Source: a virus
Taxonomy: Duplodnaviria > Caudoviricetes
Length of the DNA: 50,476 nucleotides
IMG/VR virus record: IMGVR_UViG_3300003635_000005
Span: 1-50,476 of that record
Reading direction: 5' to 3' (one strand)
Made by a program: the position numbers and the translations under genes. The notes under the pieces are model-generated. The model did not search any database. It was not told the origin of the DNA and saw only the letters and a list, made by a program, of their open reading frames with translations. Positions 2,973 through 46,034 of the stretch are shown here, piece after piece; position 1 is the first letter of the stretch; every line of letters starts with the position of its first letter.

Positions 2973-2977
2973 CCGGG

Positions 2978-3052
2978 CACTATCTCACCAACCGATATAC
3001 TTATGGTCTCCCCTACTCAAGGGAGTGTATGGTGAGCCAAACCATGTCCGAC
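2978..3052 (+). repeat. Cassette promoter/leader repeat, copy 1
   Basis: CACTATCTCAC..CCGATA..TTATGGTCTCCCCTACTCAAGG...TATGGTGAGCCAAACCATGTCCGAC shared with copies at 12389, 35425 and 42575. Confidence 0.95.
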
Positions 3053-11397: not shown

Positions 11398-12390
11398 ATG
11401 CCACAAATCACGGAGCAAGTTGCGAAAAATCGAGAGAGCACGCGGCGGCTTGACGGGAGGTTTGTTGACCTCCCGGAGACGGCCAACCGCAATCTCTCAT
11501 TTGCCCGCAACACCATAGAGATCTCCGTCACCATTGAGATATACAAGCGGAGCCTCAATGACTCGCTTATCTCGGGCCACCCGGATCCGTCTCACGGGAG
11601 TGGCCGAGGCGTGGCCGGAGACGTGCGTGGCTCATGGTCCGCCGTGAGCACCACCACCCAAAGCGCACTCTTTGTCCGTGCTGGCCGCAACGCCGTCCGT
11701 GACTCGCTTGATGGACAAGCGGGAGCGGTGCGTGAGGGTGCCGTGGGCACCTCGTCCACGGACGCCTCGGTTGGAGATACGGCTCTCGCGGCGGAGACCG
11801 GGAGCACGCTGGCCTATGGTGTCAAGGACGCCGGCAACGTCACGCGGGCACGCTCCAACTATCTCTTTGCCGAGGACGGCCTCGGGAGCACGGACGCCGT
11901 GGAGTTTGGTGTTAAGGACGAGGATGACCGGCTCCTCGCACGAGTCACCACGGACGCCGTGGACGTGAGCGAGAGTGAGGAGTTGCGGGTGGACATATCG
12001 TTGGAGGTCAACGGCTCCGGCGTGGGTAACTCCGTCATCACCAATGACGGTGAGGCGGCCATTGCGGACTCGCTCCGTGCGATTGGAGACGTGGTGGGTA
12101 TCAACGAGATCCGCTTTGGCACCGGCTCCACGGCGGCCAGCAAGTCGGACTCGGCCCTCGGCAACGAGGAGTATGCTCAAAACGCACTCCGCACGCTCTC
12201 CAACGAGTCCATAGCGGCGGAGGTGGTCACGGACGCCTCGCAACCGTCCACGCAACCCGTGGATCTCACGGAGATTGGCGTGTTTGACAACGCCAGCACG
12301 CCGCGGCTCTTGTGGCGGACCACCATGGATCCGTTGGAGAAAACGGACGCTTTCGGCTTTCGCACAACGGTCTCTTTCCGCATAGTGTAA
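11398..12390 (+). CDS. Tail/baseplate protein with duplicated domain
   Basis: Two copies of G..A..D.L....G.GT......DT.L..E...E.G..D....L. Confidence 0.55.
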   Translation: MPQITEQVAKNRESTRRLDGRFVDLPETANRNLSFARNTIEISVTIEIYKRSLNDSLISGHPDPSHGSGRGVAGDVRGSWSAVSTTTQSALFVRAGRNAVRDSLDGQAGAVREGAVGTSSTDASVGDTALAAETGSTLAYGVKDAGNVTRARSNYLFAEDGLGSTDAVEFGVKDEDDRLLARVTTDAVDVSESEELRVDISLEVNGSGVGNSVITNDGEAAIADSLRAIGDVVGINEIRFGTGSTAASKSDSALGNEEYAQNALRTLSNESIAAEVVTDASQPSTQPVDLTEIGVFDNASTPRLLWRTTMDPLEKTDAFGFRTTVSFRIV

Positions 12391-12470
12391 CCTCGCACTA
12401 TCTCACACTCCGGTATCTTTATGGTCTCCCCTACTCAAGGAGTAGTATGGTGAGCCAAACCATGTCCGAC
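12389..12470 (+). repeat. Cassette promoter/leader repeat, copy 2
   Basis: 12409-12469 identical over 61 bp to 35435-35495. Confidence 0.95.
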
Positions 12471-12812
12471 AAGACCGAGACCGCAACCACGCTCCCCGGA
12501 GCGTGCGCTCTCCTCAACGAGGAGCACGAGATACCCGCCGCACTCGCGGAGGCCCTTGACTCGCTTGACGTGCCCGCCGGAGCCGCCGGTTGCAACGGGT
12601 GCGTGGCCGCCAGCATGGACGAGGCGTTTGTCTATTACGTGGCCCAAAGCGAGGAGCACGTGGAGCGTCCGCGTTATATCAAATTCCACGCCGATGACGA
12701 GGCCGACAAGGCGGCCCTCGCTGGCCAACTCGTCCACGCACTCAATGACGCCGGCCTCGGGGTGGAGTGGGGTGGAGACCTCGGCACCGCCGTGAGGGTC
12801 CACTATGAGTAA
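12447..12812 (+). CDS. Cassette cargo protein, hypothetical (alternative start 12462)
   Basis: Starts MVSQTMSD within repeat copy 2; CxxC. Confidence 0.7.
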   Translation: MVSQTMSDKTETATTLPGACALLNEEHEIPAALAEALDSLDVPAGAAGCNGCVAASMDEAFVYYVAQSEEHVERPRYIKFHADDEADKAALAGQLVHALNDAGLGVEWGGDLGTAVRVHYE

Positions 12813-17232: not shown

Positions 17233-17283
17233 TATCTCACTCTCCGGTAACTATAAGGCCCAACAATCTCATAGGGTGAGATA
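17233..17283 (+). promoter_or_regulatory. TATCTCAC-class promoter with downstream inverted GTGAGATA
   Basis: TATCTCAC tct CCGGTA acTATAAG ... GTGAGATA (17276-17283). Confidence 0.75.
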
Positions 17284-23706: not shown

Positions 23707-24168
23707 ATGAGCGCAAGCAAAGGCTCACGAGTGGAGCGCGAGTTGGTCAACCTACTCCTTGACCTCGGGTTTGAGATTATGCGGGCACCGTCCTCGGGAG
23801 CGGCCACGTCACGAGATCTCCCGGACGTGCTGGCCGGCAACGGTGACGGACTCATTGTGGCCGTGGAGTTGAAAGCGTGGAAAGACGGCACGCACTACTT
23901 TGACGAGGAGGAGGTGGCCGCTCTCCAACGGTTTGCAAACGGTTTTCACCCGGACACCGTGCCGCTCCTCGGCACCCGGTGGAATCAAGACACTCGGTTT
24001 TACGTTGCGAGGCCGGACGCCGAGGCGCTCCACCGGACGGACTCGGGCAACGTGCGTGCGAAAAAGGAGGTGGCCCGCGAGGAGTGGGAGACGTTGGAGG
24101 ACTATGTGAGCCGCAATTGGGAGGGTCTCCGTGACCACCAGCACTCTCAATCTCACTCTCCGGTATAA
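23707..24168 (+). CDS. hjc: Archaeal Holliday junction resolvase
   Basis: KG.R.ERELV..L...GF...RAPSSG....LPDVLAG.....AVELK, the Hjc PD-(D/E)xK signature. Confidence 0.92.
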   Translation: MSASKGSRVERELVNLLLDLGFEIMRAPSSGAATSRDLPDVLAGNGDGLIVAVELKAWKDGTHYFDEEEVAALQRFANGFHPDTVPLLGTRWNQDTRFYVARPDAEALHRTDSGNVRAKKEVAREEWETLEDYVSRNWEGLRDHQHSQSHSPV

Positions 24169-24173
24169 TTAAG
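24149..24173 (+). promoter_or_regulatory. TATCTCAC-class promoter of the vWA gene
   Basis: AATCTCAC tct CCGGTA TAATTAAG. Confidence 0.75.
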
Positions 24174-24210
24174 AGGCTCCTTACCCAACGTCCGGGTGAG
24201 TTGAGCCACA

Positions 24211-26391
24211 ATGCAAGAGAGTAAGGCACTCGCTCGTTGGCTCCGTGACCTCACGGCCACGTATCACAACGAGGGAGACAAGGTTGACGTTGAGTTAACG
24301 GATCCGCGGGAGGGGAGTTATGCCGCACGAGACGGCTCCCATATCGGTATCAACCCCGCGGTGGAGGAGACCTTTGGAGTTGACGTGGAGCGGCCCAACC
24401 AACTCCGGGTAATATCGGACACCACGAGTCACGAGGTGGAGCACGTCAACGAGAGCGTGCTCACCCACAAGGCCGACTTTGCGGACGAGTATCCCATGGC
24501 GGCGGACGCCGCTGGCATGGTCCAAAACGTCCTTGAGGACACCTATATTGACCGCACCCGCACGGAGCGGTTTAGGGGCCTCCGGCGTGCTCACGCTTTC
24601 AAGATTGACACAATCATGGCCAATGACGAGGCCCGGCCACCCATGGAGGAGTGCAACCGTGGGCAAGCCTTTGTGGAGGGATTCTTGCAAGTGGCGTTTG
24701 CTGGCGGCGCAAAGGGAGACGTGACCGCTCACGAGGATCTTGAGGAGTGGTTGGAGTGGGTCAAGCCCATGATTGACCGTTGCCGGCATACCGACAACCC
24801 GGCGGGCCGGTATGAGATCTCCCACAAGGTCATGGTCAAACTCCTCACGTATCTCCCCGAGGAGGAGGCCCGCAAGCAAGCCAACGAGGCGGCGGACTCG
24901 GCGGCGGACGGCAACACCACGGACAAGACCGGAGACACCAGCGGTGACGCCGAGGATTGGAGCAAGGAGGAGGTGGAGGAGCACCTCAAGAGCCTCACCA
25001 AAGAGGACGTTGAGGACATGGACGGCGGTGAGGGAGGCCAAACGATTGACCCCGACGAGTTGGACGTGGACGAGGACGAGTTGGACTTTGATTGGGAGGA
25101 TCTCCCCGAGGGTGACGGCGGCGGTGGCGGCCCGGACACCACCGAGGAGGACGAGAGTGACGAGGGAGACGGCGGAGACGCCGGTGAGGAGGACGAGGAC
25201 GGTGACGAGGGAGACGGCGGAGACGCCGGTGAGGAGGACGAGGACGGTGACGAGTCCGATGACACCACCGGCGGTGACGAGGACGGTGAGGACGGCAACG
25301 AGGACACCGAGGAGGACGGTGACGGTGAGGACACCAGCGGTGAGGAGGATGACGCCGAGGACGTGAGCAACAAGAGCGGTGACGAGACCGCTCCCGGAGA
25401 GTTGGAAAACTCCGGCGGAGACCACGGACGAGGTGACGAGTTGGACGAGGACGTGGAGTTTGCTGGCCGCTCCGGTGAGTGGCACGGCCTCACGCAAGAG
25501 GAGGACTATGAGAGTCCGGGAGAGCAATGGGAGCGGCGTGCCGAGGCCATTGACCGGGAGGCCATGGAGGGCCAAACGGATCTCGGCCAACTCAAGCACG
25601 AGCGCCACGAGCGCATGGCCGAGGCGCAAGACTTTGGCCGGCAAAACTCCCACCGAGTCCGGGAGATCCTCCGTGACGAGGACACCGCTCAAGAGTTGAT
25701 TGACGCTTTCCGCCGGCTCCGCACGCGAGACGTTAAGGTGCCCGTCACCAGCGGTGAGGAGATCCACCTCAAAAACGCAATCCAACACCTCGCGGGAGAC
25801 TATACGGTGGAGCAAGTGTATCAACGCACCCGCCGGATTGAGACGGGAGACCGTGCCCTTGCCGTGAGTTGTGACCTATCCGGCTCCATGCGGCTCATGT
25901 CCGCTCTCACGGCTCTCGGTGCGTGCTACATATGCACCCGAGAGATTGGTGATGACTTTGCCGCCGTGGGATTTCACGGAGGCAACAACACCCCACTAAT
26001 CAAGGCGTTTGACGAGACGTGGGAGTGGGAGTTGGTGGACGGCGTGACCGCTGGCGGATCCACTCCCATGCCCGCCGGGATTGACACCGCACTCAATCTC
26101 TTTGACGGCGTGCGAGGCAAGGAGCGGGTGCTCATAGTCATCACGGACGGCATGGCCAACACCTCGTTGGACGGCGGAGACCCCGCCGAGGAGAGCGCAA
26201 GCCTCGTCACCACCGCTCAACAAGAGGGTGTCAAGGTCATTGGCCTCGGCGTTGGTGGTGTCAACGAGGAGTATATGCGCCGGATCTTTGGGAGTGACGG
26301 GTATGTGCTGGCGGACTCTCACAAGTTGGCCGAGGCGCTCATTGAGATCTATTACCGCCAAATGGATCTCGTCAAGGAGGGAGTGGTCTAA
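24211..26391 (+). CDS. HEXXH metallopeptidase-like + acidic linker + vWA (MIDAS) protein, MoxR partner
   Basis: HEVEH..N..ED..I; D/E/G linker; DLSGS, GG.TP and LIVITDG MIDAS motifs. Confidence 0.85.
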   Translation: MQESKALARWLRDLTATYHNEGDKVDVELTDPREGSYAARDGSHIGINPAVEETFGVDVERPNQLRVISDTTSHEVEHVNESVLTHKADFADEYPMAADAAGMVQNVLEDTYIDRTRTERFRGLRRAHAFKIDTIMANDEARPPMEECNRGQAFVEGFLQVAFAGGAKGDVTAHEDLEEWLEWVKPMIDRCRHTDNPAGRYEISHKVMVKLLTYLPEEEARKQANEAADSAADGNTTDKTGDTSGDAEDWSKEEVEEHLKSLTKEDVEDMDGGEGGQTIDPDELDVDEDELDFDWEDLPEGDGGGGGPDTTEEDESDEGDGGDAGEEDEDGDEGDGGDAGEEDEDGDESDDTTGGDEDGEDGNEDTEEDGDGEDTSGEEDDAEDVSNKSGDETAPGELENSGGDHGRGDELDEDVEFAGRSGEWHGLTQEEDYESPGEQWERRAEAIDREAMEGQTDLGQLKHERHERMAEAQDFGRQNSHRVREILRDEDTAQELIDAFRRLRTRDVKVPVTSGEEIHLKNAIQHLAGDYTVEQVYQRTRRIETGDRALAVSCDLSGSMRLMSALTALGACYICTREIGDDFAAVGFHGGNNTPLIKAFDETWEWELVDGVTAGGSTPMPAGIDTALNLFDGVRGKERVLIVITDGMANTSLDGGDPAEESASLVTTAQQEGVKVIGLGVGGVNEEYMRRIFGSDGYVLADSHKLAEALIEIYYRQMDLVKEGVV
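25157..25254 (+). repeat. 45-bp tandem repeat (2 copies plus a partial) in the acidic linker
   Basis: GTGACGAGGGAGACGGCGGAGACGCCGGTGAGGAGGACGAGGACG x2. Confidence 0.9.
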
Positions 26392-26702
26392 TGCTCACCC
26401 GTATCAAGGAGGCTCTCGGCCTCACGCCAAAGACAAAGCCGTGCGGGTGCCCGTGGCCGTCTCGTGGTGGATACCGGAGCGTGCGGCCACCGGACGCCAG
26501 CGAGACCGGGGAGTATCTCCGTGAGGTGGACGAGAGCAAGCCGTCCACCGTGGTCACGCGGCACTTGCAAGTCACCATGTACCGTTGCCACGAGTGCGGT
26601 GAGACCTTTGAGCAAGAGGGGCCGTGCGTGGGCAAGACAATCCGGTGGGAGGACGGTGAGGTGGAGCGCACCGGCCTCATTGCGGCCATGGAGGACTCAT
26701 GA
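26391..26702 (+). CDS. Hypothetical CxxC protein
   Basis: TAATG coupling; CHECG. Confidence 0.6.
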   Translation: MLTRIKEALGLTPKTKPCGCPWPSRGGYRSVRPPDASETGEYLREVDESKPSTVVTRHLQVTMYRCHECGETFEQEGPCVGKTIRWEDGEVERTGLIAAMEDS

Positions 26703-26989
26703 ACGTTGGAGGAGATCTTATGGGTGAAAACCAGCACCTCATACCCGAGACGGAGATTGAGAGCAACAACGCGGCGTTGTCGGACGTGGAGAGCCTATGC
26801 GGAGAGCACTTTGACCACGTGGGCACCTACAATGTCCACTCGTGGGCCGGGTTTAGAGGCATGGAGGGCATGGAGGAGTATCTTGAGGAGAAAGCGGAGA
26901 CGTTGTGCCGGGAGTGCTTGCAAATAGCAACGCGGCACCACGGGTGGCCAGCAACCGCCGAGGTGCTCAAGGAGGTCCACCATGAGTGA
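26699..26989 (+). CDS. Hypothetical Cys/His protein
   Basis: H...LCG...CREC. Confidence 0.6.
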   Translation: MNVGGDLMGENQHLIPETEIESNNAALSDVESLCGEHFDHVGTYNVHSWAGFRGMEGMEEYLEEKAETLCRECLQIATRHHGWPATAEVLKEVHHE

Positions 26990-27656
26990 TGACAAGCCGG
27001 AGTGGGCAAAGCGCAATGACGAGATCCACAAGACCCTCACGGAGGCCGGCAAGGCGCTCAAAGACAAGGACACCCCTATCTCGGTGGAGGATCTCGCGGA
27101 CAACCGGATTGGAGACATAGCACGTGCCGAGGAGGAGCGGTTGGTCCGCACGCTCTTTGAGCGGATCCGGGAGGCCGAGGTGGAGGTGCATGACCCTCAA
27201 TTTGTGACGGACCCCGAGGATCTTGAGCCGGGCACCATGGACACCAGCACGGAGCGTGCTGGCCGGATTGACGCCGAGGGTGAGCCGCTCACCATTGACC
27301 ATATATATGACGCCGCCGAGATTGCCGAGAGCAACGGCTTTAGGGTGGACGCAAATGGGTGGGAGTGGTGGCTCCACCCGCGGCAACTCAACAATCTCCG
27401 TGATGACGAGGACGTAAAGCACCACCTCGCTGGTGCTGGCCCGGTCCTTGAGGCGGAGGAGGGAGAGTATGCCGCGGAGATTATCGGCACGCCAATCCGC
27501 ACTTTCCCGCAATTCCCGCGGGCCGCCGCTCTCCTCATTGACCCCGAGACGTTGGAGCCGGAGCACGCCGTGGGGAGCCGCGTGCCCAAAGCGGTGCTGG
27601 TGCGAGATCCACGCCGCGTGGTCCGTATCACCGGCCTCGGTCTCTCCCCGGACTAA
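26982..27656 (+). CDS. Hypothetical protein
   Basis: GGAGG SD; acidic, 224 aa. Confidence 0.7.
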   Translation: MSDDKPEWAKRNDEIHKTLTEAGKALKDKDTPISVEDLADNRIGDIARAEEERLVRTLFERIREAEVEVHDPQFVTDPEDLEPGTMDTSTERAGRIDAEGEPLTIDHIYDAAEIAESNGFRVDANGWEWWLHPRQLNNLRDDEDVKHHLAGAGPVLEAEEGEYAAEIIGTPIRTFPQFPRAAALLIDPETLEPEHAVGSRVPKAVLVRDPRRVVRITGLGLSPD

Positions 27657-27675
27657 CCCCGGCCTCTTTAACCCC

Positions 27676-27830
27676 GGACGGCATACGTCCGCGTGCGGTG
27701 TTGTCGGACATGACCACCGCGGCGGGCCGTGCATTGTGGCTCACCTAACAATCCTCGGCCCGCTCACCTCCGCACTAACATAGTGCGGCGGTGGCATATC
27801 GGCTCACTACTCACCACCCGAAAGCGGTGC
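27676..27830 (+). ncRNA. Candidate structured multi-guide antisense RNA (predicted 5' end ~27695)
   Basis: Follows TCTTTAACCCCGG, the same 13-mer as before the tRNA; consecutive hairpins; 14/14 and 16/17 antisense matches to viral start-codon regions. Confidence 0.65.
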
Positions 27831-27851
27831 TTAACGGCTCCCCGTCCTCCG

Positions 27852-27876
27852 TATCTCACTATCCGGTATAACTAAG
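27852..27876 (+). promoter_or_regulatory. TATCTCAC-class promoter of the AAA+ gene
   Basis: TATCTCAC tat CCGGTA TAACTAAG. Confidence 0.75.
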
Positions 27877-27913
27877 TAGGTCCGTGCTAAACAAGCGAGT
27901 GGATTGAGCCACA

Positions 27914-29265
27914 ATGCAAGCGAAAGACGCAATTGACGCCATAGAGGACGGCAACGAGACGGTCAAGGAGATTGCCGAGTATCTTGACCTCCACAAAAAC
28001 AACGTGGGCAAGCAACTCAAGCGCATAGCGGAGGATCCGGGCAACCCCGTGGACCGGGAGCCGGAGGGCCGTGGTCATCGGTATTACCTCAACGAGGATC
28101 TCACCAGCGGAGACGCCGCCGAGGCAACGCCGGTTGCTGGTGGCCGAGACTATGATTGGGAGGAGTATCTCCCGGACCCCAACCGCGTGCCCGCATATGA
28201 GCCGTTTAGGGACGAGTGGGACGGTATCAATGACGAGATTGACTTTGTGCAAGAGTGGTTGGAGGACCACCCGGACCCCGAGAGTTGGGAGGACGCCGCA
28301 TGGGAGCCGCGGCTCCCGCACTTCAAATTGGAGGGGCCAACCGGGAGCGCAAAGACCACGCTTTTCAAATCGCTGGCGTTGGAGCGTGGGTGGCCCGTCT
28401 TTACCCTACAAGTGGCCTATCAAATGGACAAGTCCGACATTGTGGGGAGTGCCCGGCTCCGTGCTGGTGAGACCGTATGGCAAGACGAGGTGCTTGTCAA
28501 AACCGGCCCGTGGTCCTAATCGTTGACGAGGCCAACCGTGCGCCGCCGAGAGCAAAGAGTGCGCTCTTTGAGTCTCTTGACTTTCGGTGCGCCATTGAGT
28601 TGAAGGGACGAGGCGGTGAGGTGATTGAGGGCAACCCCTTCAACCTCATAGTTGGTGCCACTATCAACAAGGGGCCGGGATACCACGTTGAGCCGATTGA
28701 CAAGGCCGAAAAACGCCGATACGGCAACACGTGGGAGGTTGGATACCTCGGCATGGCTCCCGAAAACGAGGACGGCGTGAGTGGCAAGGAGCGTGAGGCG
28801 GATCTCATTGCCAGCAAGTCACCGGCCAGCAAGCGCCTCGCGGAGTTAATGGTTGAGGCGGCCAACGACGTCCGTGAGCGGGCCGAGGACCCCACGAGTG
28901 ACGTGCGGAGTGGCCTCCCGGTGGACTATACAATCTCGTGGGCACAAACGGCGGCGGCACGCCACCACGCGGGCCGTGATAATCCCGTCATCAAGGCCGG
29001 GCAAGCCGCGGTCATTGACTCATACTATGACGAGAGACAAGAGGAGGCCGACGAGGTGTTTAGCGTGCTCACCTCGCACCTTGACGGCGTGCCGTTTGAG
29101 CGTGACGAGTTGAGCGAGTGGGCCGGCGGAGCCGAGGAGAGAGTCACGTGCATGAATTGCGATTATACGGACAGCGTGGACGAGGCCGAGAGTCAAGGCG
29201 TGCTTGATTGGATGGAGTGCCCGGAGTGCAACCATGACGTTAAGCGAGTGGGTGGAGGTGAGTAA
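27914..29265 (+). CDS. MoxR/CbbQ-type AAA+ ATPase with N-terminal wHTH and C-terminal zinc ribbon; frame broken at ~28500
   Basis: Walker A GPTGSAKT in 27914-28519; Walker B VLIVDEANRA, ATIN and D.A..RR in the -1 frame to 29265. Confidence 0.85.
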
Positions 29266-29744
29266 TGCCATACACCTATCACAAGGACCCACGGGAGCGC
29301 CACGGCACCCAACGCCACGTTTACCTCGGCGTGGATCTTGAGGCGGACCAAACGAGGACGTGGCCGTGCGCTTGCGGCAACAAGAAGGTCCTCACTATCG
29401 GCCTCGCTCACGTCACCGACGTGGCGGACGTGGAGGGCATGAGCGAGTGGCTTGAGCGGAGCGAGGTCAACAACCATTGCGCCGCAAAGGCCCGCCAGCA
29501 ACTCGGCCTTGCACCAGCACTCACCGAGGTGGACGGCGTGACGTTGAGCAAGTCCCTATACCTCAAGGAGGCCGGCATTGAGACGTGGTGGGATCTCGTC
29601 AACACCAGCGAGGGAGAGTTGGCCATGGTGGAGGGCATTGACAAGGAGTTGGCCGCACGTATCAAGACGGACGTGGGTGGCCACCGTGAGAGCGAGGCCG
29701 TGGCTTACAACGAGCGGCTCACCTCGTGGGGTGGAGGCCGGTGA
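29265..29744 (+). CDS. Helix-hairpin-helix protein
   Basis: LTEVDGV.....L.EAGI.T..DL......L..VEGI....A.RI. Confidence 0.7.
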   Translation: MPYTYHKDPRERHGTQRHVYLGVDLEADQTRTWPCACGNKKVLTIGLAHVTDVADVEGMSEWLERSEVNNHCAAKARQQLGLAPALTEVDGVTLSKSLYLKEAGIETWWDLVNTSEGELAMVEGIDKELAARIKTDVGGHRESEAVAYNERLTSWGGGR

Positions 29745-30211
29745 TATTCACCTCGCACCCGGACCTCACCGAGGAGGTCCACCTATGGCTTGATGACATG
29801 GCGGAGCAAGTCGCTGGAGATCTTGACGAGGACGGCACGCCGGAGAGCCGGACCTTTGAGCCAACCACCTCCGCCATGTGTGGTGAGGAGCCGGACCTCC
29901 ACGGCGGCTCCCTCACGCCAGCAAGCGAGACGTGGGCCAGCAACGTCATGGATCTCCTCGGCACCACCGGAGTGTGTGAGGAGTGCCGGACTCGCGTGGC
30001 CCTCTATTACGATATGGCCGACGAGGTGACGCTTGACGCCACCAGCGACGGGGTGCCGGTTTGCCCGGAGTGTGAGAGCATATACCGGACGGCCACCCTC
30101 CGCCGAGTCTATACGGACACCGTGGACGGCTCCACGGAGGCCATAGCCACCCGCCACCACGGTTGTGACGAGTGCGGCCACGAGTGGGAGACGGACGTGG
30201 TGATTGAGTGA
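29741..30211 (+). CDS. Zinc-finger protein
   Basis: GTGA overlap; CEEC, CPEC, CDECGH.W. Confidence 0.6.
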   Translation: MIFTSHPDLTEEVHLWLDDMAEQVAGDLDEDGTPESRTFEPTTSAMCGEEPDLHGGSLTPASETWASNVMDLLGTTGVCEECRTRVALYYDMADEVTLDATSDGVPVCPECESIYRTATLRRVYTDTVDGSTEAIATRHHGCDECGHEWETDVVIE

Positions 30212-30777
30212 CTATGGTAATGCTCAATACGGACATAGGTGAGGACGAGGACCACGATAAGGTGCACCTCTTTCTCTCCCACAAGACGGAGGACAATCTC
30301 TTGCCGGTGGCGTTGTGTGGAGATATGAGCATGGGTCACTTTCACCTTGAGCCGGCCAGCGAGGCCGTGCAAGTCCTCCCCGTGCCAACCGAAAAGGCAC
30401 GCAAGGGCTTGTGGGCCTCCCTCCGGCACCTTCAAGAGGAGTATCTCCTTTGTGAGGAGTGCACCAGCGAGTATCTTGACGCCACGAGGGAGCCACCGCA
30501 AGAGCACGAGGTGGACGTGGATCCGGTCACGGACGGCGGCGGCAACTTTTGGTGGGCCGCCAAACCCGGCGAGTTGCACATTTGGACGAGGGAGCCGCAC
30601 GTTGACACTCCCGCCTTGTGTGGAGAGTGGGCACGGGAGTGGGACACCAACCCGCTGGCGGAGCACCCTATGGTCAAGGACGGCACTAAGGAGACGTTGG
30701 AGGAGTTTATCCGCCTCGTTGCTGTTTGTGACGAGTGCCGTGAGACCGCACGAGAGCGGTATGGTTTCACCGCATGA
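30208..30777 (+). CDS. Protein with duplicated H..ALCG..C.EC zinc-binding module
   Basis: Two internal repeats separated by TDGG. Confidence 0.65.
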   Translation: MTMVMLNTDIGEDEDHDKVHLFLSHKTEDNLLPVALCGDMSMGHFHLEPASEAVQVLPVPTEKARKGLWASLRHLQEEYLLCEECTSEYLDATREPPQEHEVDVDPVTDGGGNFWWAAKPGELHIWTREPHVDTPALCGEWAREWDTNPLAEHPMVKDGTKETLEEFIRLVAVCDECRETARERYGFTA

Positions 30778-31020
30778 GTCTCCAATAATCTCCACCCGTC
30801 TCCAATTAGTCGTTGGATACCGTCTCTCTCTCTCCAATCTCTCGTGAGTAAGGAGGTCATACCCCCGGCAACCAAACCATAATCGCAAGACGTGGCGGCC
30901 CTCACGTGAGGTAAGGCAACGCCTCGTCAAGGGGCCGAGTCTCTCTATACTACTACTACTAACTAATAAAGTAGTAAGTAAGTAAGTAAGTAAGCCAAAT
31001 CTTAGAAAGAGTTTTATCAC
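30778..31020. other. Putative replication origin (AT-rich, iterated motifs)
   Basis: Non-coding; TCTCCAAT x3, palindrome CCTCACGTGAGG, (TAC)4, (TAAG)5. Confidence 0.5.
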
Positions 31021-31044
31021 GGGAGCCGAGATAGGGAGTTGTTA

Positions 31045-31779
31045 ATGTCCGACAAAACCACAATCAATCACGAGGTGGACGCCGCCACGTATGAGCGTTT
31101 CAAGGACCTCATACGGCAAAAGCACGGATCCACGCATGGCCGAGTGGCCGAGACAATCACCGAGGCGCTTGACCTATGGGTTGAGGCCCACGAAAACGGT
31201 GATTTGGACCTCCTCAACGAGGATAGCGCCGTGCTGGCCAAACTCGGCAACATAGAGGCCCGCCTTGATTCATTGGAGACGTTGGAGAGAGAGAGACAAT
31301 CTCCAACGGGTGCCGAGGCGGCCAGCGTGGGCACCGAGACGGAGCAAAAGTTGGAGCGTATGGTCAAGAATCTCCCGGACGAGGCTCAAGTGAGCGAGAC
31401 CGTGGTGGAGGCCGTCATTGAGGACGAGGGCCTATCAAGTTACAAGACGCTCAAGAAATACAAGCGGCTCATGCAACGCCGTGGCCACGTCATTGAGCAC
31501 CCGGACGAGAGTGCCACGTATTTCACCGGCGCACGCAAGTTTGCAATTTGGGCCGAGTCCTCGCCGGACGTAACGCCAAAGCGAGTGGATTATCTCGTGG
31601 GCCAGCACGAGGAGGTCCTCGGTGAGGGTTGGTATGCCGAGGCGCTCCCGTCCGACTTTCGCACGGACAAGGAGGCATGGCTCAACACAAAGTATGCTCA
31701 AGCCGTCAACGGTGGCGGGCAAGAGTTAGTGGATCTCCACGTTGAGGGAGAGCGAGGCGGCCAGCGGCACTATCAGTAA
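31045..31779 (+). CDS. N-terminal ribbon-helix-helix protein, possible replication/copy-control factor
   Basis: TTINHEVD...YERFK.......G.V.ETI.EAL..W; adjacent to the AT-rich region. Confidence 0.55.
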   Translation: MSDKTTINHEVDAATYERFKDLIRQKHGSTHGRVAETITEALDLWVEAHENGDLDLLNEDSAVLAKLGNIEARLDSLETLERERQSPTGAEAASVGTETEQKLERMVKNLPDEAQVSETVVEAVIEDEGLSSYKTLKKYKRLMQRRGHVIEHPDESATYFTGARKFAIWAESSPDVTPKRVDYLVGQHEEVLGEGWYAEALPSDFRTDKEAWLNTKYAQAVNGGGQELVDLHVEGERGGQRHYQ

Positions 31780-31799
31780 GCCGCTCACGCCTCACGGCC

Positions 31800-31847
31800 T
31801 ATCTCACCCGGCAAACTTCTTAAGACCCTATCCCAAATGGTGAGATA
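31800..31847 (+). promoter_or_regulatory. Promoter bracketed by inverted TATCTCACC / GGTGAGATA
   Basis: Perfect 9-bp inverted pair flanking CTTAAG. Confidence 0.7.
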
Positions 31848-31850
31848 CGT

Positions 31851-32243
31851 ATGCCAGCAACAACCAGCAATGAGGGTTGGGAGCCAACCGAGGCCCGCAC
31901 TATCCGGGCACGGAGCGAGACCAACCGCATAATTACTTTCACGCCGTCCACGCTTGAGGAGAGCGGGATTGCCGTGGGACTTGACATGGCAATCTATGCC
32001 CGCGAGGGAGAGATCCGCCTATACCCGTGGAGTGAGCCAATCCCCGAGGCCGTGGCCGAGTCCGACTTTCGGCCATGCGGCGTGCGGGAGGTCCATACCT
32101 CGGGCACCTCAACGGTTATCACGCTCACCGAGACGGCTCTCGGCGTGGCCGGCGTGACCAAAGGAGTGCGTATGCAACAATGGAGTGGTGACGAGGCGCT
32201 CCGTCTCACCACCGAGGGTCCCAATTTGGAGGTGGCCGCATGA
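31851..32243 (+). CDS. Tandem AbrB/SpoVT-like DNA-binding protein
   Basis: Two R.I.......IT.T...L...GI..G..M......IRL repeats. Confidence 0.6.
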   Translation: MPATTSNEGWEPTEARTIRARSETNRIITFTPSTLEESGIAVGLDMAIYAREGEIRLYPWSEPIPEAVAESDFRPCGVREVHTSGTSTVITLTETALGVAGVTKGVRMQQWSGDEALRLTTEGPNLEVAA

Positions 32244-34999: not shown

Positions 35000-35212
35000 A
35001 TGTCTCGCAAGTGCCTCAATTGCGGTGCTCAAGTCACCACGCAATACGCACGAGTGTTTTCTCTTGAGGGTGAGGATGACGTGCGAGTGTGCCCGGATTG
35101 CCCGGACAAGATCCGCGGCAAGGGTGGCAAGCCTCGTGACGCACGGAGCACGCGGCGGACGGACACCAGCGAGGACGTGGACCACTCCCGCGAGACAAGC
35201 AAGAGTCTTTAA
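35000..35212 (+). CDS. Small haloarchaeal-type zinc-finger protein
   Basis: C.NCG..VT..YARVF.......VCPDC. Confidence 0.75.
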   Translation: MSRKCLNCGAQVTTQYARVFSLEGEDDVRVCPDCPDKIRGKGGKPRDARSTRRTDTSEDVDHSRETSKSL

Positions 35213-35237
35213 CCCCGGCGTGAGTGCTCACGAGCGC

Positions 35238-35310
35238 ACTCCCGTGGTGTAGTGGCCAATCATACGTGCCTTTGGAGCACGTGACCCCGATTCAAATTCG
35301 GGCGGGAGGA
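35238..35310 (+). tRNA. tRNA-Gln(UUG) with non-canonical T-arm
   Basis: 73-nt cloverleaf: CTCCCG/CGGGAG acceptor, CGTGC-CTTTGGA-GCACG anticodon arm (TTG 35272-35274), CCCGA-TTCAAAT-TCGGG T-arm; TTTAAC box at 35208. Confidence 0.9.
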
Positions 35311-35424
35311 CTTTAGCACTCTCCGCCGTTTATACAAAGCCCTTGAAAGCGTGGAGCACCTCGCTCGTGCCCGCTCGTGCCGTCTCGCTTAGTTGCTCCG
35401 GTGTCCTTAGCACTATCACGCACG

Positions 35425-35495
35425 TATCTCACCGTCCGGTATCTTTATGGTCTCCCCTACTCAAGGAGTAGTATGGTGAGCCAAACCATGTCCGA
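35425..35495 (+). repeat. Cassette promoter/leader repeat, copy 3
   Basis: 61 bp identical to copy 2. Confidence 0.95.
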
Positions 35496-36546
35496 TGACC
35501 GCACCGCCGACGAGATCCGTGCCGACGTGCTCCGTGCCGCACGCAACGCACTCAAGAATCACTCAAGTGACGCCACCAGCGGAGCGAGTTACAACAAGCG
35601 CCGTGCCGCGGAGAAAGCGTTTGACGCCGCCATGGCCGCACTCCGGCCCGTGCCCGTGGACGAGAGACCGGACGGCCTCGTGGAGTGCGTTGACCAACTC
35701 ACGAGTCTTGCCCGCCACGAGAGCCGGAGCAAGGCCGAGGAGGCCCTCACGGACGCCGTGGCCGAGTGCCTCACGCGGAGCATGGAGGACGAGGACGGTG
35801 AGTGGGTCCACGTGGAGGACGCCGAGGATCTCTTTGAGCGTGGTGACGAGATAACCGTGCGATACCGAGAGCACTCCGGCGGAGCCGACGAGGAGCCGGG
35901 TGAGTGGGTCAAAGTCACCGGCACCGTCCGCAAGAACGTGCCGCGTGGTGCTGGTGGCCTATGGGTCACTATTGAGGAGGACACCCACCGCGAGTCATGG
36001 CGAAAACTCCACCGCGTGCCCGGCGGCACCGTCACCGGCACCCACCCATACGGCAACCGCAAGGTCCGCAAGGGCCTCCGGGCCAAAGTCCTCCTCCCCG
36101 AGGACGAGGACGAGAGCGAGGATGACGAGGACGCCAGCGAGGAGGAGCACAAGGCCGTCACGGACGGCGGCACCGTCACCGAGGAGAGCGAGGCCATGAG
36201 CACCGTGCCCGAGTGCGTTGTGTGCCACCGGCCTCCGTGCGGACCCACCGAGGGCCTTGAGAGCGTGGACGAGTCCGCCGTGGACCCCTCCAACCGCCAC
36301 CACAACTCCAACCTCGTGGACACCAGCGAGTCACCCGAGGGCACCGTTTGGGTTTGCTCCACGTGCCGTGACGTGCTCCACGCCGAGGGGGAGACCGTGC
36401 GAGTGTGCCACCACAAACTCTCCGTCAAGGAGGAAAACCCGGACTCTTACACCCTCGCGGGTGAGGTGGCCGGTGTCCACCAGCACGTCACCGCCACCAA
36501 ACAGCACGTCCACCAGCAACTCACGGACGCCGAGGTGGATCTATGA
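35473..36546 (+). CDS. Cassette cargo protein, multi-domain (helical + SH3-like + zinc finger)
   Basis: Starts MVSQTMSD; GDEITVRY..TGTV; CVVC..CSTC. Confidence 0.75.
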   Translation: MVSQTMSDDRTADEIRADVLRAARNALKNHSSDATSGASYNKRRAAEKAFDAAMAALRPVPVDERPDGLVECVDQLTSLARHESRSKAEEALTDAVAECLTRSMEDEDGEWVHVEDAEDLFERGDEITVRYREHSGGADEEPGEWVKVTGTVRKNVPRGAGGLWVTIEEDTHRESWRKLHRVPGGTVTGTHPYGNRKVRKGLRAKVLLPEDEDESEDDEDASEEEHKAVTDGGTVTEESEAMSTVPECVVCHRPPCGPTEGLESVDESAVDPSNRHHNSNLVDTSESPEGTVWVCSTCRDVLHAEGETVRVCHHKLSVKEENPDSYTLAGEVAGVHQHVTATKQHVHQQLTDAEVDL

Positions 36547-42571: not shown

Positions 42572-42574
42572 TGC

Positions 42575-42643
42575 AACCTCGCACTATCTCACTCTCCGGT
42601 ATCTTTATGGTCTCCCCTACTCAAGGGATTGTATGGTGAGCCA
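42575..42643 (+). repeat. Cassette promoter/leader repeat, copy 4
   Basis: AACCTCGCACTATCTCAC.CTCCGGTATCTTTATGGTCTCCCCTACTCAAGG...GTATGGTGAGCCA. Confidence 0.95.
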
Positions 42644-44057
42644 CAACACCAACGCGGACGAGGAGGAGACGCTTGAGGAGCCAATCAAGATCCGGTGGAC
42701 GGGCAAGGCCCGTGACCGCCTCGGCGGGTGGGCACTTGACTTTGCCAACGCCGACGAGGACAACGGCATGGAGGCTTACGTGCGTGCGGACTCACGGCAA
42801 AAGACCAACGTGGTGCTTGAGACCGTGGAGGAGGCCGAGGCCGTTGCTGGTTTCATGAATAAGGTCATCGGTGAGGGTGGAGACTATGGCCGCACGTGGG
42901 TCAACGGAGCCGTGGACAACGCGGGCCAGCGAGTCCGCCGCGAGATTGTTGACGCCATGGCGGAGCGAGGGTTTGAGGTCTCCAACCTCACCAGCGTTTA
43001 CGGCCTCGCGTTTGAGGAGGCCGAGGAGCCGGACGTGGACGTGGAGGAGGGAGACACCGTGATTGACGAGGCCCATGACGTGACGGGCAACGTCACCGGC
43101 GTGGACGGCAACACCGTCCACGTGGAGTTTACCAACGGCGTGACCTCCGCCACCACCGTCTCGGGCCTCCTTGACGAGAGCAACCCGTGGACGCACGTGC
43201 CCGCCGAGGCGGACGAGGAGCCGGAGATCCGCACGGACGGCGGCGTGGCCACCGAGGAGGAGCGAGAGCCGGACGAGGCGGACGTGGACGTGCCGTGCGA
43301 GGAGGGAGACCGCGTGGCCGTTGAATACCACTCCGCTCACGTGGACCGCCGCAAGATCCTCGTGGGGAGCGTCAAGGAGGTGGTGCTCAAGGGAGCGCCG
43401 CGAGACGGAGAGTGGGTGGCCATGCTGGCGGAGATCTATGTCCGGCCCGAGGAGGGCCACCGCAATGACCGGAGTGAGCATTACACCGAGACCACGCGGA
43501 GCGCCATGCGCCGCGTGACGTGGGAGATTGAGGAGGACGAGGACCGCGGGTGGCACTCCGTGGAGGCCCGCAACGGCCTCCGGTGGAATAGGGTCAACGA
43601 GACCGGCACCCGGACGGAGATCTCCGTGCTGGCCGAGGACGAGGAGCCGCCGCACCCGGACAACGGCGTGGTGCTGGCGGTGGGCCTCCGGTGTCATCGG
43701 TGCAACGGCACCTCGTGCAAGGAGGTCACGGACCCCGAGACGGAGCCGCTCACGGGCACGCGGTGGGCTTGCCCTCATTGCCACGAGATTGATGACGAGA
43801 GCGGTGCCGAGATTGGCCAGCAATATGAGATCCTCGGGTGCAAGCCGGTCTCGCACGTGGACACCTCGTGGTCTCTCGCGGAGCACGAGGCGTTGGAGTG
43901 GGCCGCCTCACCAACGCGGTGGAGGGCTTTCACCGAGACGGTGCTCAAGGGCCGCAAGGCCACGGCCTATGCCGATGACGTGGACGTGACGCCGGGCACG
44001 GTTTACCGGCACGTGCATGACGCTCGTGAGGTGCTCAAGGGTGGTCTCAATGAGTGA
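42633..44057 (+). CDS. Cassette cargo protein, multi-domain (two SH3-like, zinc ribbon, C-terminal HTH)
   Basis: Starts MVSH in repeat copy 4; GDTV/GDRV modules; CHRC..CPHC; A...DV.PGTV.RHV..AR HTH-like tail. Confidence 0.75.
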   Translation: MVSHNTNADEEETLEEPIKIRWTGKARDRLGGWALDFANADEDNGMEAYVRADSRQKTNVVLETVEEAEAVAGFMNKVIGEGGDYGRTWVNGAVDNAGQRVRREIVDAMAERGFEVSNLTSVYGLAFEEAEEPDVDVEEGDTVIDEAHDVTGNVTGVDGNTVHVEFTNGVTSATTVSGLLDESNPWTHVPAEADEEPEIRTDGGVATEEEREPDEADVDVPCEEGDRVAVEYHSAHVDRRKILVGSVKEVVLKGAPRDGEWVAMLAEIYVRPEEGHRNDRSEHYTETTRSAMRRVTWEIEEDEDRGWHSVEARNGLRWNRVNETGTRTEISVLAEDEEPPHPDNGVVLAVGLRCHRCNGTSCKEVTDPETEPLTGTRWACPHCHEIDDESGAEIGQQYEILGCKPVSHVDTSWSLAEHEALEWAASPTRWRAFTETVLKGRKATAYADDVDVTPGTVYRHVHDAREVLKGGLNE

Positions 44058-44316
44058 GCACGTCACCGCGGAGGTCCGCGAGGACATTAGTGCGGCCCTC
44101 GGCCCGCTCATGGAGGAGGACGTGGAGGAGTTGCGGTTGGAGGATCTTGAGCACGCCATGGAGGCCATGGACGCCGTGCGCTCCCGCGGCGTGAGCACGG
44201 ACAATGGCCTCCTCGTCAAGGCGGCGGAGCACGTGCAAGAGCAAGTCCGCGAGGAGTTGGTGCGCCGCCAGCGTGAGCGGCACGAGCGTGACGCCGAGGC
44301 GGGCCGCCAGCGGTAA
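44050..44316 (+). CDS. Hypothetical helical protein (cassette cargo)
   Basis: Overlapping start. Confidence 0.6.
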   Translation: MSEHVTAEVREDISAALGPLMEEDVEELRLEDLEHAMEAMDAVRSRGVSTDNGLLVKAAEHVQEQVREELVRRQRERHERDAEAGRQR

Positions 44317-44360: not shown

Positions 44361-46034
44361 ATGAGGGTCAACGACATTGCGGAGTTTTCGGACACAATAG
44401 ACTCGGGAGGGGAGACCACGCTCACCGTGGAGACCGAGGAGCGCAACGCCACCATGGTCATGCTCTCGGTGGAGGCCGCTGGCGGCGGGAGTGCTGTTTT
44501 CCACGGCCTTGAGTGGGAGTATCGGCCCACGGACGCCGCCGGGTGGAGGTACTACAAGGCCGAGGACGCAAGTGATGACCGCACCCACATTGAGCCGGCG
44601 CTCCCGCGGCAAATGAGAGTCACCGTGACCAACGTGACGGACGCCGCCACCACGTTTGACATACGGCTCTCCTCCATGGGTCCGCAAGGCAACAACGCCG
44701 CCGGCTCCATGGGTATGCCGCCGCTGGCGGACGGGGAGGTAAAGGTGAGTGACGTGAGCGCGTTGCTCTCAACGGTGGATCTCAATGACGGCGTGCGGAC
44801 CACGCCGGTCAAGAGCGAGTTTAACCTCACGCCGGCTCCGCTCTCGGTGTTTCGGGATTGGTGGCCAGCACAAAAGGACAAGGTGGAGGGCACCACCACT
44901 CCCGGCTCCGCGAGTTACAACGGAGACACCTATGTGGTGGAGACGGACGCCGTGACCAACGGGAGATCTTTCCTTGAGACGGCCAGCACGGGCCGATACC
45001 GGAGCGGATCCGTTGGGATTGCTGGCATATATGTGGAGTTTGACGGCCCGCCGGTGGGCTTTGCGGAGTGGGGATACCTCCGGGAGACGGACACCAACGC
45101 ACTCAAGTTTAGGTATGAGAGTGACGGCTCACTCTCGTTTGTCATCACGAGGGCCGGCGTGGATCTCGTCATACCGCAATCCGCGTGGGCACCGAGTGGA
45201 GAGCAAGAGGTCACGGACGCCAATGGAGATCCGGTGGGTGTTGTCATCGGGATTGACGGCATGGACGGCAACGGCCCGAGTGGCGTGACGCTCAACCCGG
45301 ACAACGGGTATGTGTATCGGGTGGACTTTGCGTGGTATGGCGGCGGCGCAATCGCTCCTCACATTGTGGAGATTGGTCCAACGGGCCAGCAACGAGCGTG
45401 GCCAATCTTTGCCTATATGCCTCGTGGCCAAACGAGTATCTCCCAACCCAATCAACCCGTGAGTGCGGTCCTCAACAATGACGGCACGGCCACGGCGGAC
45501 TCGCTCAAGGTTGCTGGCCGGCAATTCTCCACCGCTGGTGACTTTGAGGACGAGGTGCGAGAGACCACGCACCTCCGTGAGGACTTTGACATACAAACCA
45601 CGTGGGAGCCGTGGCTTTTCGTCCGGCGCAAGGACACCATTGACGGATCCGCCACGGCGGAGGGCATATCTTTTGACCTCGGGCCGCTGGCGTGGGCCAT
45701 TGACCAAACCATTGCGTTTGAGGCACGGGTTGGAGTGGTGCCGGACGGATCTCCCGATTGGCAAGCACCCTCCCGGACCTCCCCGGACGAGACGGCGGTG
45801 GAGGTGGCGGAGACGGTGGACGGTGGCAACCCGCTGGCCGTCACGGACAACGGAGAAAAGTATGGCGGCAACCTTGCCGGCTCCGCTCAAGGCGGCAACA
45901 AGACGCTCACGGACCAAAGCCGGGAGTTTGGCGCTCCTTTCCCGAGGAGATCCGTCAACGCAATCTTTGCAAAGGCGGTTGATACGGCCACGTCCGGCTC
46001 CTCGGTCAACACGACAATCCCGGAGGGGTGGTAA
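44361..46034 (+). CDS. Large beta-rich putative virion protein
   Basis: 557 aa; RY.SG..EWGY..DG.GPSG.TL......Y..DF.WYG.G motifs; restart-class promoter. Confidence 0.55.
   Translation: MRVNDIAEFSDTIDSGGETTLTVETEERNATMVMLSVEAAGGGSAVFHGLEWEYRPTDAAGWRYYKAEDASDDRTHIEPALPRQMRVTVTNVTDAATTFDIRLSSMGPQGNNAAGSMGMPPLADGEVKVSDVSALLSTVDLNDGVRTTPVKSEFNLTPAPLSVFRDWWPAQKDKVEGTTTPGSASYNGDTYVVETDAVTNGRSFLETASTGRYRSGSVGIAGIYVEFDGPPVGFAEWGYLRETDTNALKFRYESDGSLSFVITRAGVDLVIPQSAWAPSGEQEVTDANGDPVGVVIGIDGMDGNGPSGVTLNPDNGYVYRVDFAWYGGGAIAPHIVEIGPTGQQRAWPIFAYMPRGQTSISQPNQPVSAVLNNDGTATADSLKVAGRQFSTAGDFEDEVRETTHLREDFDIQTTWEPWLFVRRKDTIDGSATAEGISFDLGPLAWAIDQTIAFEARVGVVPDGSPDWQAPSRTSPDETAVEVAETVDGGNPLAVTDNGEKYGGNLAGSAQGGNKTLTDQSREFGAPFPRRSVNAIFAKAVDTATSGSSVNTTIPEGW

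Follow-up and report, generated by a model that had tools for sequence, protein, structure and literature searches.

A candidate small structured RNA gene with inverted leader copies in a haloarchaeal siphovirus and its relatives

Trans-acting base-pairing small RNAs of archaea and bacteria mask the translation start regions of several messages through short, imperfect pairing. Among phages, the loop sequences of the c4 RNA pair with sites over the ribosome-binding site, and the CI RNA of satellite phage P4 is similar to c4. The c4 immunity RNA of phages P1 and P7 is described, in the relevant passages of one source, as a small structured antisense RNA with its own promoter, located just upstream of the operon that it represses (PMC8198154). 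For the Halobacterium virus phiH (phiH1), passages in three sources describe Tant, an antisense RNA directed against the 5′ portion of one viral message (PMC4284463, PMC6210493, PMC8707807); according to two of these, pairing with Tant makes that message untranslatable because a host RNase specific for RNA duplexes cleaves it (PMC4284463, PMC8707807). Repeated promoter sequences also appear in such accounts: the class I and class II intergenic repeats of HF2 carry promoters, as the passages on that virus relate (PMC8707807), and the Hardycor1 repeats lie upstream of six ORFs, overlap their start codons and are associated with identical N-termini, as stated in the corresponding part of the Hardycor1 description (PMC7911831).

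Gene regulation in archaeal viruses is almost unknown, and in the parts of the literature that we covered the only antisense RNA named is the phiH cis counter-transcript of 1993. Those same parts describe no trans-acting antisense RNA of a haloarchaeal virus and no inverted leader copy, which is not proof of absence. Here we describe a non-coding locus of a haloarchaeal siphovirus in which hairpins carry inverted copies of the virus’s own repeated leaders. A cis counter-transcript would lie on the opposite strand of its target, in place, and share long perfect complementarity with it; this locus does neither. On an evenly balanced judgement, we take it to be the gene for a small structured non-coding RNA belonging to a family of trans-acting anti-leader RNAs.

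The window (the whole stretch of DNA analysed, 50,476 bp, an IMG/VR record) is a complete haloarchaeal siphovirus genome with 99-bp direct terminal repeats. Gene calling by codon usage assigned 71 genes to the + strand and a single doubtful one to the - strand, with a tail tube protein (gene 5585) and a portal/MuF protein among the products. A vWA protein gene occupies 24211-26391, and an AAA_5 (MoxR-like) ATPase gene is split into overlapping frames at 27914-28519 and 28477-29265. This ATPase shares 37-47% identity with its counterparts in HHTV-2, HCTV-2 and Hardycor1, all of them haloarchaeal siphoviruses, and a blastn search of phage records found no nucleotide-level relative of the window. 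The locus falls in the non-coding interval 27657-27913, between gene 26982-27656 and the AAA ATPase gene; a - strand ORF at 26967-27734 with a leader-like ATG was considered and rejected, as it was outscored by the overlapping + strand gene 26982-27656.

Parts of the region 24000-32000 were present in 20 sequencing runs from 12 studies, and the contigs of four of these runs were compared with the window. Among them a single RNA library yielded contigs over the vWA gene and none over 27536-27939, which is uninformative on transcription either way, and a DNA contig from one run spans 27604-28258 with 12 substitutions and nine gap positions relative to the window. Within gene 26982-27656, 12 of the 25 listed variant places fall at third codon positions of the + frame, which is weak evidence. 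The features of the locus, with the tRNA gene that served as reference for the promoter call, are as follows.

27665 to 27677, + strand: predicted promoter, the 13-mer TCTTTAACCCCGG, identical to the promoter 13-mer of tRNA-Gln
27667 to 27674, + strand: promoter core TTTAACCC, within the 13-mer
27676 to 27690, no strand assigned: palindrome GGACG-GCATA-CGTCC, read from the sequence as lying between the TATA box and the predicted start
27693, + strand: predicted transcription start at G, 26 nt past the first T of TTTAAC, from promoter geometry
27695 to 27720, + strand: hairpin A of the minimum-energy fold, its top (27696-27712) being the antisense segment
27721 to 27764, + strand: hairpin B of the minimum-energy fold, with an 8-bp GC stem and an antisense upper part (27730-27754)
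27765 to 27793, + strand: hairpin C of the minimum-energy fold, CACC-CCGCACTA/TAGTGCGG-GGTG, without a convincing target
27794 to 27835, + strand: weakly structured, pyrimidine-rich stretch in the fold, the putative tail
35206 to 35311, + strand: tRNA-Gln(TTG) with the same 13-mer promoter

As a model reading the sequence alone had noticed, the 13-mer is shared with the tRNA: it occurs in the window only at 27665 and 35206 (0/100 shuffles gave two matches), and the second copy begins 32 nt upstream of tRNA-Gln at 35238. The core TTTAACCC likewise occurs only twice, at the anti-leader locus and at the tRNA. Primer extension in HF2, as reported in the passage concerned, located a TCTTTAAG-type TATA motif (within TCTTTAAGTC) 26 nt upstream of a transcript that begins with G (PMC8707807). 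Because the TATA-to-G spacing at our locus agrees with that mapping, promoter geometry favours transcription of the + strand, as a prediction, from a G two bases ahead of hairpin A. In two of the relatives considered below, HCTV-2 and the IMG/VR record G001, the corresponding hairpins are also preceded by TTTAACCC, 18 nt and GTG. To judge by where it sits with respect to the promoter, the palindrome at 27676-27690 is probably not part of the RNA, and it may bind a protein; as a guide arm it was discarded, its matches being at background. By eye, palindromes occur in the same promoter spacer at the tRNA and at the HCTV-2, G001 and Hardycor1 loci.

The stretch 27693-27794 consists of three adjacent strong hairpins (-57.9 kcal/mol, z -6.24, with 0/200 shuffles folding as well), and the longer stretch 27695-27835 also folds stably (z -4.72). 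The sequence-only reading had proposed a longer series of hairpins; three of these, built on GCGGTG/CACCGC, GCGGGCCG/CGGCCCGC and CCGCACTA/TAGTGCGG, are present in the minimum-energy fold, from which its GGTGG/CCACC and GAAA hairpins are absent. Its GGACG/CGTCC ‘first hairpin’ is a genuine palindrome that lies upstream of the predicted transcription start, and the five CAT trinucleotides at 27682, 27709, 27732, 27779 and 27795 are all where it placed them. The opposite strand of 27693-27794 folds equally well (z -6.47), so folding cannot tell the strand of the locus, and the same holds in five of the six viruses, where folding energy does not separate the strands. A scan of the window against Rfam 15 returned tRNA as the sole family match; compared with Rfam families, c4 included, the locus reached at best 20.7 bits against a gathering threshold of 52.5, so that none matches.

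The targets of the locus are the repeated promoter-leader cassettes of the virus: repeats of 32-96 nt with a TATA-like motif that lie upstream of dispersed genes and overlap their start codons. They are candidate promoters. The class A unit is 96 nt long and present in four copies of 73-85% identity, and the remaining cassettes with matches are of class B.

2970 to 3065, + strand: class A cassette, copy 1 (repeat family D7), a target
12388 to 12483, + strand: class A cassette, copy 2 (D7), the best target
35414 to 35509, + strand: class A cassette, copy 3 (D7), a target
42574 to 42669, + strand: class A cassette, copy 4 (D7), the target of hairpin B
24143 to 24215, + strand: class B cassette of the vWA gene (repeat family D16), with the variant AATCTCAC and its ATG at 24211
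27846 to 27918, + strand: class B cassette of the AAA ATPase gene (D16), with TATCTCAC at 27852 and its ATG at 27914

The target genes start at 3029, 12447, 24211, 27914, 31045, 35473 and 42633, all on the same strand as the locus. The AAA ATPase cassette adjoins the locus directly downstream. Six sites have in common a 32-nt promoter core (family D16) composed of TATCTCAC, 3 nt, CCGGTAT and an AT-rich box. The motif TATCTCAC is enriched in the window, with 12 sites against 0.79 expected, and in some cassettes it and its complement flank the TATA box. As the AT-rich box lies about 30 nt upstream of the ATG, the cassette messages probably have very short leaders or none. On its - strand, the locus reads as a class A leader in which a 24-nt insert replaces 3 nt, so its two arms are colinear with one target.

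In class A cassette genes, the second ATG and the codons at the start of the frame are what the top of hairpin A complements: segment 27696-27712 is complementary to 12461-12477 at 16/17 positions and to 31045-31062 at 16/18, with perfect runs of 10 nt at 3043-3052 and 9 nt at 35487-35495. The upper part of hairpin B is complementary to the class B leader with its ATG and, in addition, to the beginning of class A messages. Its segment 27730-27743 matches the vWA start (24202-24215) and the AAA start (27905-27918) at 14/14 positions each, extending to 18/20 over 24196-24215; the match to 42635-42646 (12/12) extends to 19/21 over 42626-42646, and a 9-nt run of this hairpin is complementary to three class A leaders. 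Across the locus the longest perfect run is 14 nt and the longest segment 19/21. The complementarities first noticed from the sequence alone at 12461, 24202, 27905, 31045 and 42635 thus hold, some of them over greater lengths, and those of 9-10 nt at 17378, 21710, 31847 and 36900 are at background level. Five guide arms had been envisaged, of which two exceed background. Hairpin C was dropped as an arm, its 9-11-nt matches being at background, as was the tail segment 27801-27815, whose pairing with the vWA leader has to span a 2-nt bulge. The estimate that six of the eight TATCTCAC genes are matched was an overcount: perfect runs reaching 9 nt or more that overlap or adjoin the start were found for five of the eight on the + strand (3029, 12447, 27914, 35473 and 42633).

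Because long shared words are common in this genome, the mere length of a match says little here: a 155-nt window has on average 0.67 14-mers in common with the rest of the genome in antisense and 1.58 in sense. Counts of matched starts are more telling. Perfect runs of at least 10 nt covering a start codon were found at five starts for the locus and at no more than three for any of the 1998 other 155-nt windows taken from the + strand; with runs of 12 nt, these figures fell to three starts and at most one. The - strand windows with such counts are mainly the opposite strand of the cassettes themselves. An ungapped score summed over the eight best starts was reached by 0/1000 dinucleotide shuffles and 6/999 + strand windows, and by 137/999 - strand windows, which are antisense to coding sequence and from which this loose score does not separate the locus. 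Shuffles of the locus reached three starts at ≥12 nt in 0/200 cases. Against shuffled controls and other + strand windows, then, the start-window matches stand above chance.

When binding energies were calculated by cofolding, charging for the opening of self-structure, class A starts ranked 1, 2, 4 and 7 of 71; the vWA start came 10th of 71 and the AAA start fell outside the top 14. These low ranks arise because hairpin B stays closed: part of its antisense segment is tied up in the stem, and the cofolds open only hairpin A and the tail. Only two independent arms underlie all the matches, and the targets are paralogous leaders.

We compared five relatives—HCTV-2, HHTV-2, Hardycor1 and the IMG/VR records G001 (complete, 51,342 bp) and G002 (92% complete). 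Every one of them has a cassette family of its own whose leader differs, plus one orphan inverted copy of that leader, which lies on the strand of the neighbouring genes in non-coding or dubiously annotated DNA.

HCTV-2, 3383 to 3396: inverted copy, 14/14 complementary to three ATGGCGCAGCAGAC-type starts and over 12-13 nt to two more
HCTV-2, 3438 to 3453: second arm in the same non-coding region, complementary at 16/16 positions to a gene start on the opposite strand at a distance of 43 kb
G001, locus homologous to that of HCTV-2, with the same arrangement: 18/18 to its own leader, including the whole ATG
HHTV-2, 5665 to 5681: complementary to this virus’s leaders at 16/17 and 14/14 positions, on top of an 11-bp-stem hairpin
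G002, position as in HHTV-2: same 14-nt loop segment as HHTV-2, on an unrelated 13-bp stem
Hardycor1, 45026 to 45044: 17/17, at the apex of a long hairpin that follows a TTTTTACC box

A hairpin bears the copy at its top in every one of the six viruses (z -3.0 to -6.3). That of HCTV-2 tops a hairpin with a 10-bp stem (3367-3424), 18 nt after TTTAACCC, and the HHTV-2 hairpin lies directly upstream of that virus’s own ATPase gene. The annotated HCTV-2 ‘gene 10’ and HHTV-2 ‘gene 9’ overlie the loci; their would-be products are basic, non-acidic proteins. The HHTV-2 match is weak, and that of the G002 copy to its own leaders includes a perfect run of only 9 nt.

The relatives’ loci were picked after a match had been seen, so an unbiased scan is a fairer test than shuffling. 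For this, every 150-nt window on both strands was scored by the number of starts to which it held a 12-nt perfect complement, excluding positions less than 60 nt from any called start. The locus came first in HCTV-2 (seven starts; next best three), G001 (four; next two) and Hardycor1 (eight; next six), and in the window it tied for first place (four starts) with a low-complexity acidic-repeat region, so that it was first or tied first in four of the six genomes. The HHTV-2 and G002 loci were unranked, because their matches are shorter or interrupted and because the HHTV-2 site is also masked by the called start of ‘gene 9’. Shuffles reached the observed maximum in 0/200 cases for HCTV-2, 0/200 for Hardycor1, 3/200 for the window and 7/200 for HHTV-2 (a 13-nt run).

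The proposal of one structured RNA antisense to start regions gains support from these five relatives, its transcription being predicted. Covariation between guides and leaders had been suggested as a check. At the level of whole copies it is seen across the six viruses, each copy matching the leaders of its own virus; stem covariation at the level of single base pairs, judged from two pairs of sequences, is not significant by count. In a 2-kb alignment of HCTV-2 with G001, the flanking genes have 15-26 identical positions per 30 columns and the non-coding DNA 5-17/30, with the exception of a block made up of the 5′ stem and antisense segment, at 23/30. Close up, the TATA motif, this block and the 3′ stem are kept, and the spacer and remaining loop are not. 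One stem pair is changed on both sides (A-U versus G-C) and one on a single side, but with two sequences this compensatory count is not significant (247/500 shuffles were as high). HHTV-2 and G002 share the loop segment, but their perfect stems (11 and 13 bp) are unrelated. The alignment register of the stems is ambiguous, so no compensatory pairs were counted there. In G002, G-U pairs favour the + strand (-56.4 versus -46.0 kcal/mol).

Searches for further members added none. Close relatives of the window’s locus were sought among viral contigs, by protein and by DNA, with nothing or 16-18-nt chance matches returned, and by a protein scan of metagenome contigs, with none found. One search for more members of the relatives’ lineages gave nine stretches, six due to chance and three in HCTV-2 or G001 (two being the locus itself and one the opposite strand of a G001 cassette gene); a second recovered only HHTV-2 and G002. 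Four matches from a third were all chance, a fourth returned 41 bacterial MoxR-like loci and no haloarchaeal provirus, and blastn of the three isolates’ loci found only those isolates themselves.

The mechanism that we propose is as follows. The RNA would be transcribed from the + strand by its own TTTAACCC promoter, starting near 27693 and extending for at least ~100 nt. Two of its three hairpin tops would present the reverse complement of the first 10-20 nt of the cassette messages, start codon included, and would pair in trans with the 5′ ends of the targeted messages. These come from the vWA gene, the AAA gene, gene 31045 and all four class A genes. The pairing would have to be in trans, because hairpin A cannot act on the adjacent AAA gene and because the target of the second HCTV-2 arm is not adjacent to its locus. 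Pairing may block initiation on these short-leader or leaderless messages, expose the duplex to cutting by a host RNase, or both. Repression is the likely outcome; activation through the opening of a leader hairpin is a less likely one. The sequence-only reading had gone further in naming a block of translation as the action, a surmise for which we found no support, and in calling the targets early genes, which is unsupported given that the TATCTCAC set includes the tail tube gene 5585. The RNA gene could have originated as an inverted duplication of a piece of a cassette, with the same RNA family present in related haloarchaeal siphoviruses.

Taken as a class, the loci of the HHTV-2, HCTV-2 and Hardycor1 groups and of this virus may represent an undescribed kind of regulator, and we hold this view tentatively, at a little below even confidence. 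It would consist of an inverted-cassette small RNA with a tRNA-type promoter that exerts post-transcriptional control over a whole cassette regulon, the vWA/AAA-ATPase operons included, through the extreme 5′ ends of the messages.

The best placed of the alternatives, although we consider it unlikely, is that the leader DNA binds a viral regulator and that the inverted copies are extra operators past the TTTAACCC promoter, with no pairing of RNA. Orientation is irrelevant for a site in double-stranded DNA; conserved cassette motifs, the enriched TATCTCAC among them, lie at the TATA box or start site, and the bracketing of the TATA box by TATCTCAC and its complement in some cassettes would suit such a site. 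The HF2 authors, in the passage concerned, likewise deem intergenic repeats likely binding sites for viral regulators (PMC8707807). Operators do not explain, however, why each copy tops a long perfect stem while the stem sequences of the relatives differ, nor the G-U pairs that favour the + strand in G002, and the matches carry on into the opening codons of the target genes. The idea that proteins bind an array of GTGAGCC or CTCAC sites was considered and dropped, since neither motif is enriched overall.

Second among the alternatives, and also unlikely, is action in cis: the hairpins would belong to a long 5′ UTR or inter-operon spacer of the AAA message and pair with 27905-27918, such that long transcripts are translationally silent and short ones from the TATCTCAC promoter active. 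On the + strand no T-run terminator follows the hairpins ahead of the AAA gene (as judged by a bacterial-type rule, a crude guide in archaea), and the RNA may thus be no more than that gene’s long 5′ leader. The loci of the window, HHTV-2 and G002 all lie directly upstream of an AAA gene with a complementary leader, the gene downstream of the G001 and Hardycor1 loci also begins with cassette-like sequence, and in a 266-nt fold the tail at 27793-27815 pairs with the AAA leader. That same long fold, however, keeps the three hairpins closed and leaves the 14/14 segment unused in cis. Hairpin A matches class A starts that are not present in the AAA message, the HCTV-2 and G001 loci do not adjoin an AAA gene, and the second HCTV-2 arm targets a gene on the other strand, 43 kb off.

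A third possibility, again improbable and placed below the other two, is that these are decaying cassette copies inverted by recombination, and that the hairpins are unrelated structures of operon boundaries without function. The - strand of each locus does align with a cassette over 20-45 nt, without the TATA box; cassettes are prone to recombination and occur on both strands in Hardycor1, HCTV-2 and HHTV-2, and 14-mers are not rare in this genome. In the window, however, all 71 well-scoring genes are on the + strand, leaving no obvious source of an inverted cassette. Perfect runs of 12-18 nt persist although cassette copies are only 73-85% alike, conservation between HCTV-2 and G001 is restricted to the TATA box, stem and antisense segment, and the arrangement is found again in three lineages besides the window.

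Chance, in the form of a GC-rich structured spacer sharing k-mers with gene starts, is very improbable: long shared k-mers are common here, many - strand windows reach the loose score and the sequence-only reading scanned the whole window before picking the locus, but the start-hit counts, shuffle tests and unbiased scan, the shared tRNA promoter and the recurrence in relatives all speak against it.

If the preferred reading of a trans-acting anti-leader RNA is true, no earlier antisense RNA of an archaeal virus would have acted in trans on several targets, and a conserved RNA directed in trans against a virus’s own repeated leaders would amount to a new layer of control. Regulatory RNA genes that began as inverted copies of the sequences they target would gain a prokaryotic counterpart, the puzzling Hardycor1 repeats that overlap start codons would acquire a function, and HHTV-2 ‘gene 9’ and HCTV-2 ‘gene 10’ would have to be reannotated. 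Such an RNA would also supply a natural system for studying the effect of 5′-end pairing on the translation of leaderless messages. Three carriers (HHTV-2, HCTV-2 and Hardycor1) are cultured isolates with known hosts, so the proposal is directly testable.

How, then, does the locus compare with known systems? The window’s cassettes are of the same kind as the promoter repeats of HF2 and Hardycor1, but the available passages on those viruses treat direct repeats as promoters and mention neither an orphan inverted leader copy nor an RNA made from one (PMC8707807, PMC7911831). The likeness to Tant, as described in the passages cited above, lies in a halovirus-encoded RNA directed against the 5′ part of a viral message, here proposed from the sequence. 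Tant is a counter-transcript from the opposite strand of a single target to which it is fully complementary, whereas the present locus is encoded on the strand of its targets at distances of 3.5-25 kb, shares only 12-21 nt with them, would address several messages and bears its antisense segments on hairpins. Cellular trans-acting small RNAs share the proposed action; the RNA considered here would be encoded by a virus, act on that virus’s own regulon and be derived from its target by inversion. Closest in logic, on the parts of the c4 account cited above, is the c4 RNA of P1 and P7, with its own promoter, its position upstream of a repressed operon and its short complementarity, all of which are predicted features of this locus; c4 is bacterial and acts on one operon, whereas the RNA proposed here would act on dispersed paralogous leaders and has no relation to c4 in sequence or structure.

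Both predicted TTTAACCC promoters, that of the candidate anti-leader RNA locus and that preceding the tRNA-Gln gene, have a palindrome in the spacer that separates the TATA box from the predicted start, and two further sites in the window combine TATCTCAC with its own reverse complement:

27676-27690: palindrome GGACG..CGTCC, between TATA box and predicted start of the locus TTTAACCC promoter
35219-35232: palindrome CGTGAG..CTCACG, between TATA box and predicted start of the second TTTAACCC promoter
17233-17283: TATCTCAC and its own reverse complement, ~40 nt apart, flanking an AT-rich box
31800-31847: TATCTCAC and its own reverse complement, ~40 nt apart, flanking an AT-rich box

Small palindromes occupy the corresponding position, from TATA box to predicted start, at the loci of HCTV-2, Hardycor1 and the IMG/VR relative G001, and this element may be a regulator site. 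The two TATCTCAC arrangements look like symmetrical promoters, possibly bidirectional or operator-flanked.

A contig from X20, an RNA-library sequencing run, shows no difference from the window over the promoter, leader and start of the vWA gene (24094-24244). It begins upstream of the predicted vWA promoter and therefore reflects read-through transcription or DNA carry-over. Within the locus, the 5′ flank of hairpin C contains CTCACCTCC (27761-27771), which is similar to the 3′ end of 16S rRNA and could pair with Shine-Dalgarno-like GGAGGTG sequences.

The AAA_5/MoxR-like ATPase downstream of the locus (27914-29265) lies in two overlapping frames, 27914-28519 and 28477-29265, which match phrog_29395 over its N-terminal half and its C-terminal half, respectively; the same ATPase is a single frame in HHTV-2, HCTV-2, Hardycor1, G001 and G002. 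A frameshift, recoding or an error in the assembly could account for the split. The ATPase gene also holds a 16-nt perfect complement (28874-28889) of the hairpin B 3′ stem region (27752-27767), and the stretch 44085-44114 repeats one 14-mer and one 9-mer from the locus; these matches are probably due to chance, because 14-mers are common in this genome. Elsewhere, a 33-nt inverted repeat (85% complementarity) links a CT-rich segment (30811-30843), within the 267-nt spacer 5′ of gene 31045, with a segment inside that gene (31276-31308).

Among the isolate relatives, annotated genes overlap the anti-leader hairpin in HHTV-2 (‘gene 9’, L014 5648-5941) and HCTV-2 (‘gene 10’, L015 3367-3609). Both are probably not protein-coding; their predicted products are basic and Ser/Arg-rich, unlike the acidic proteins of haloarchaea.
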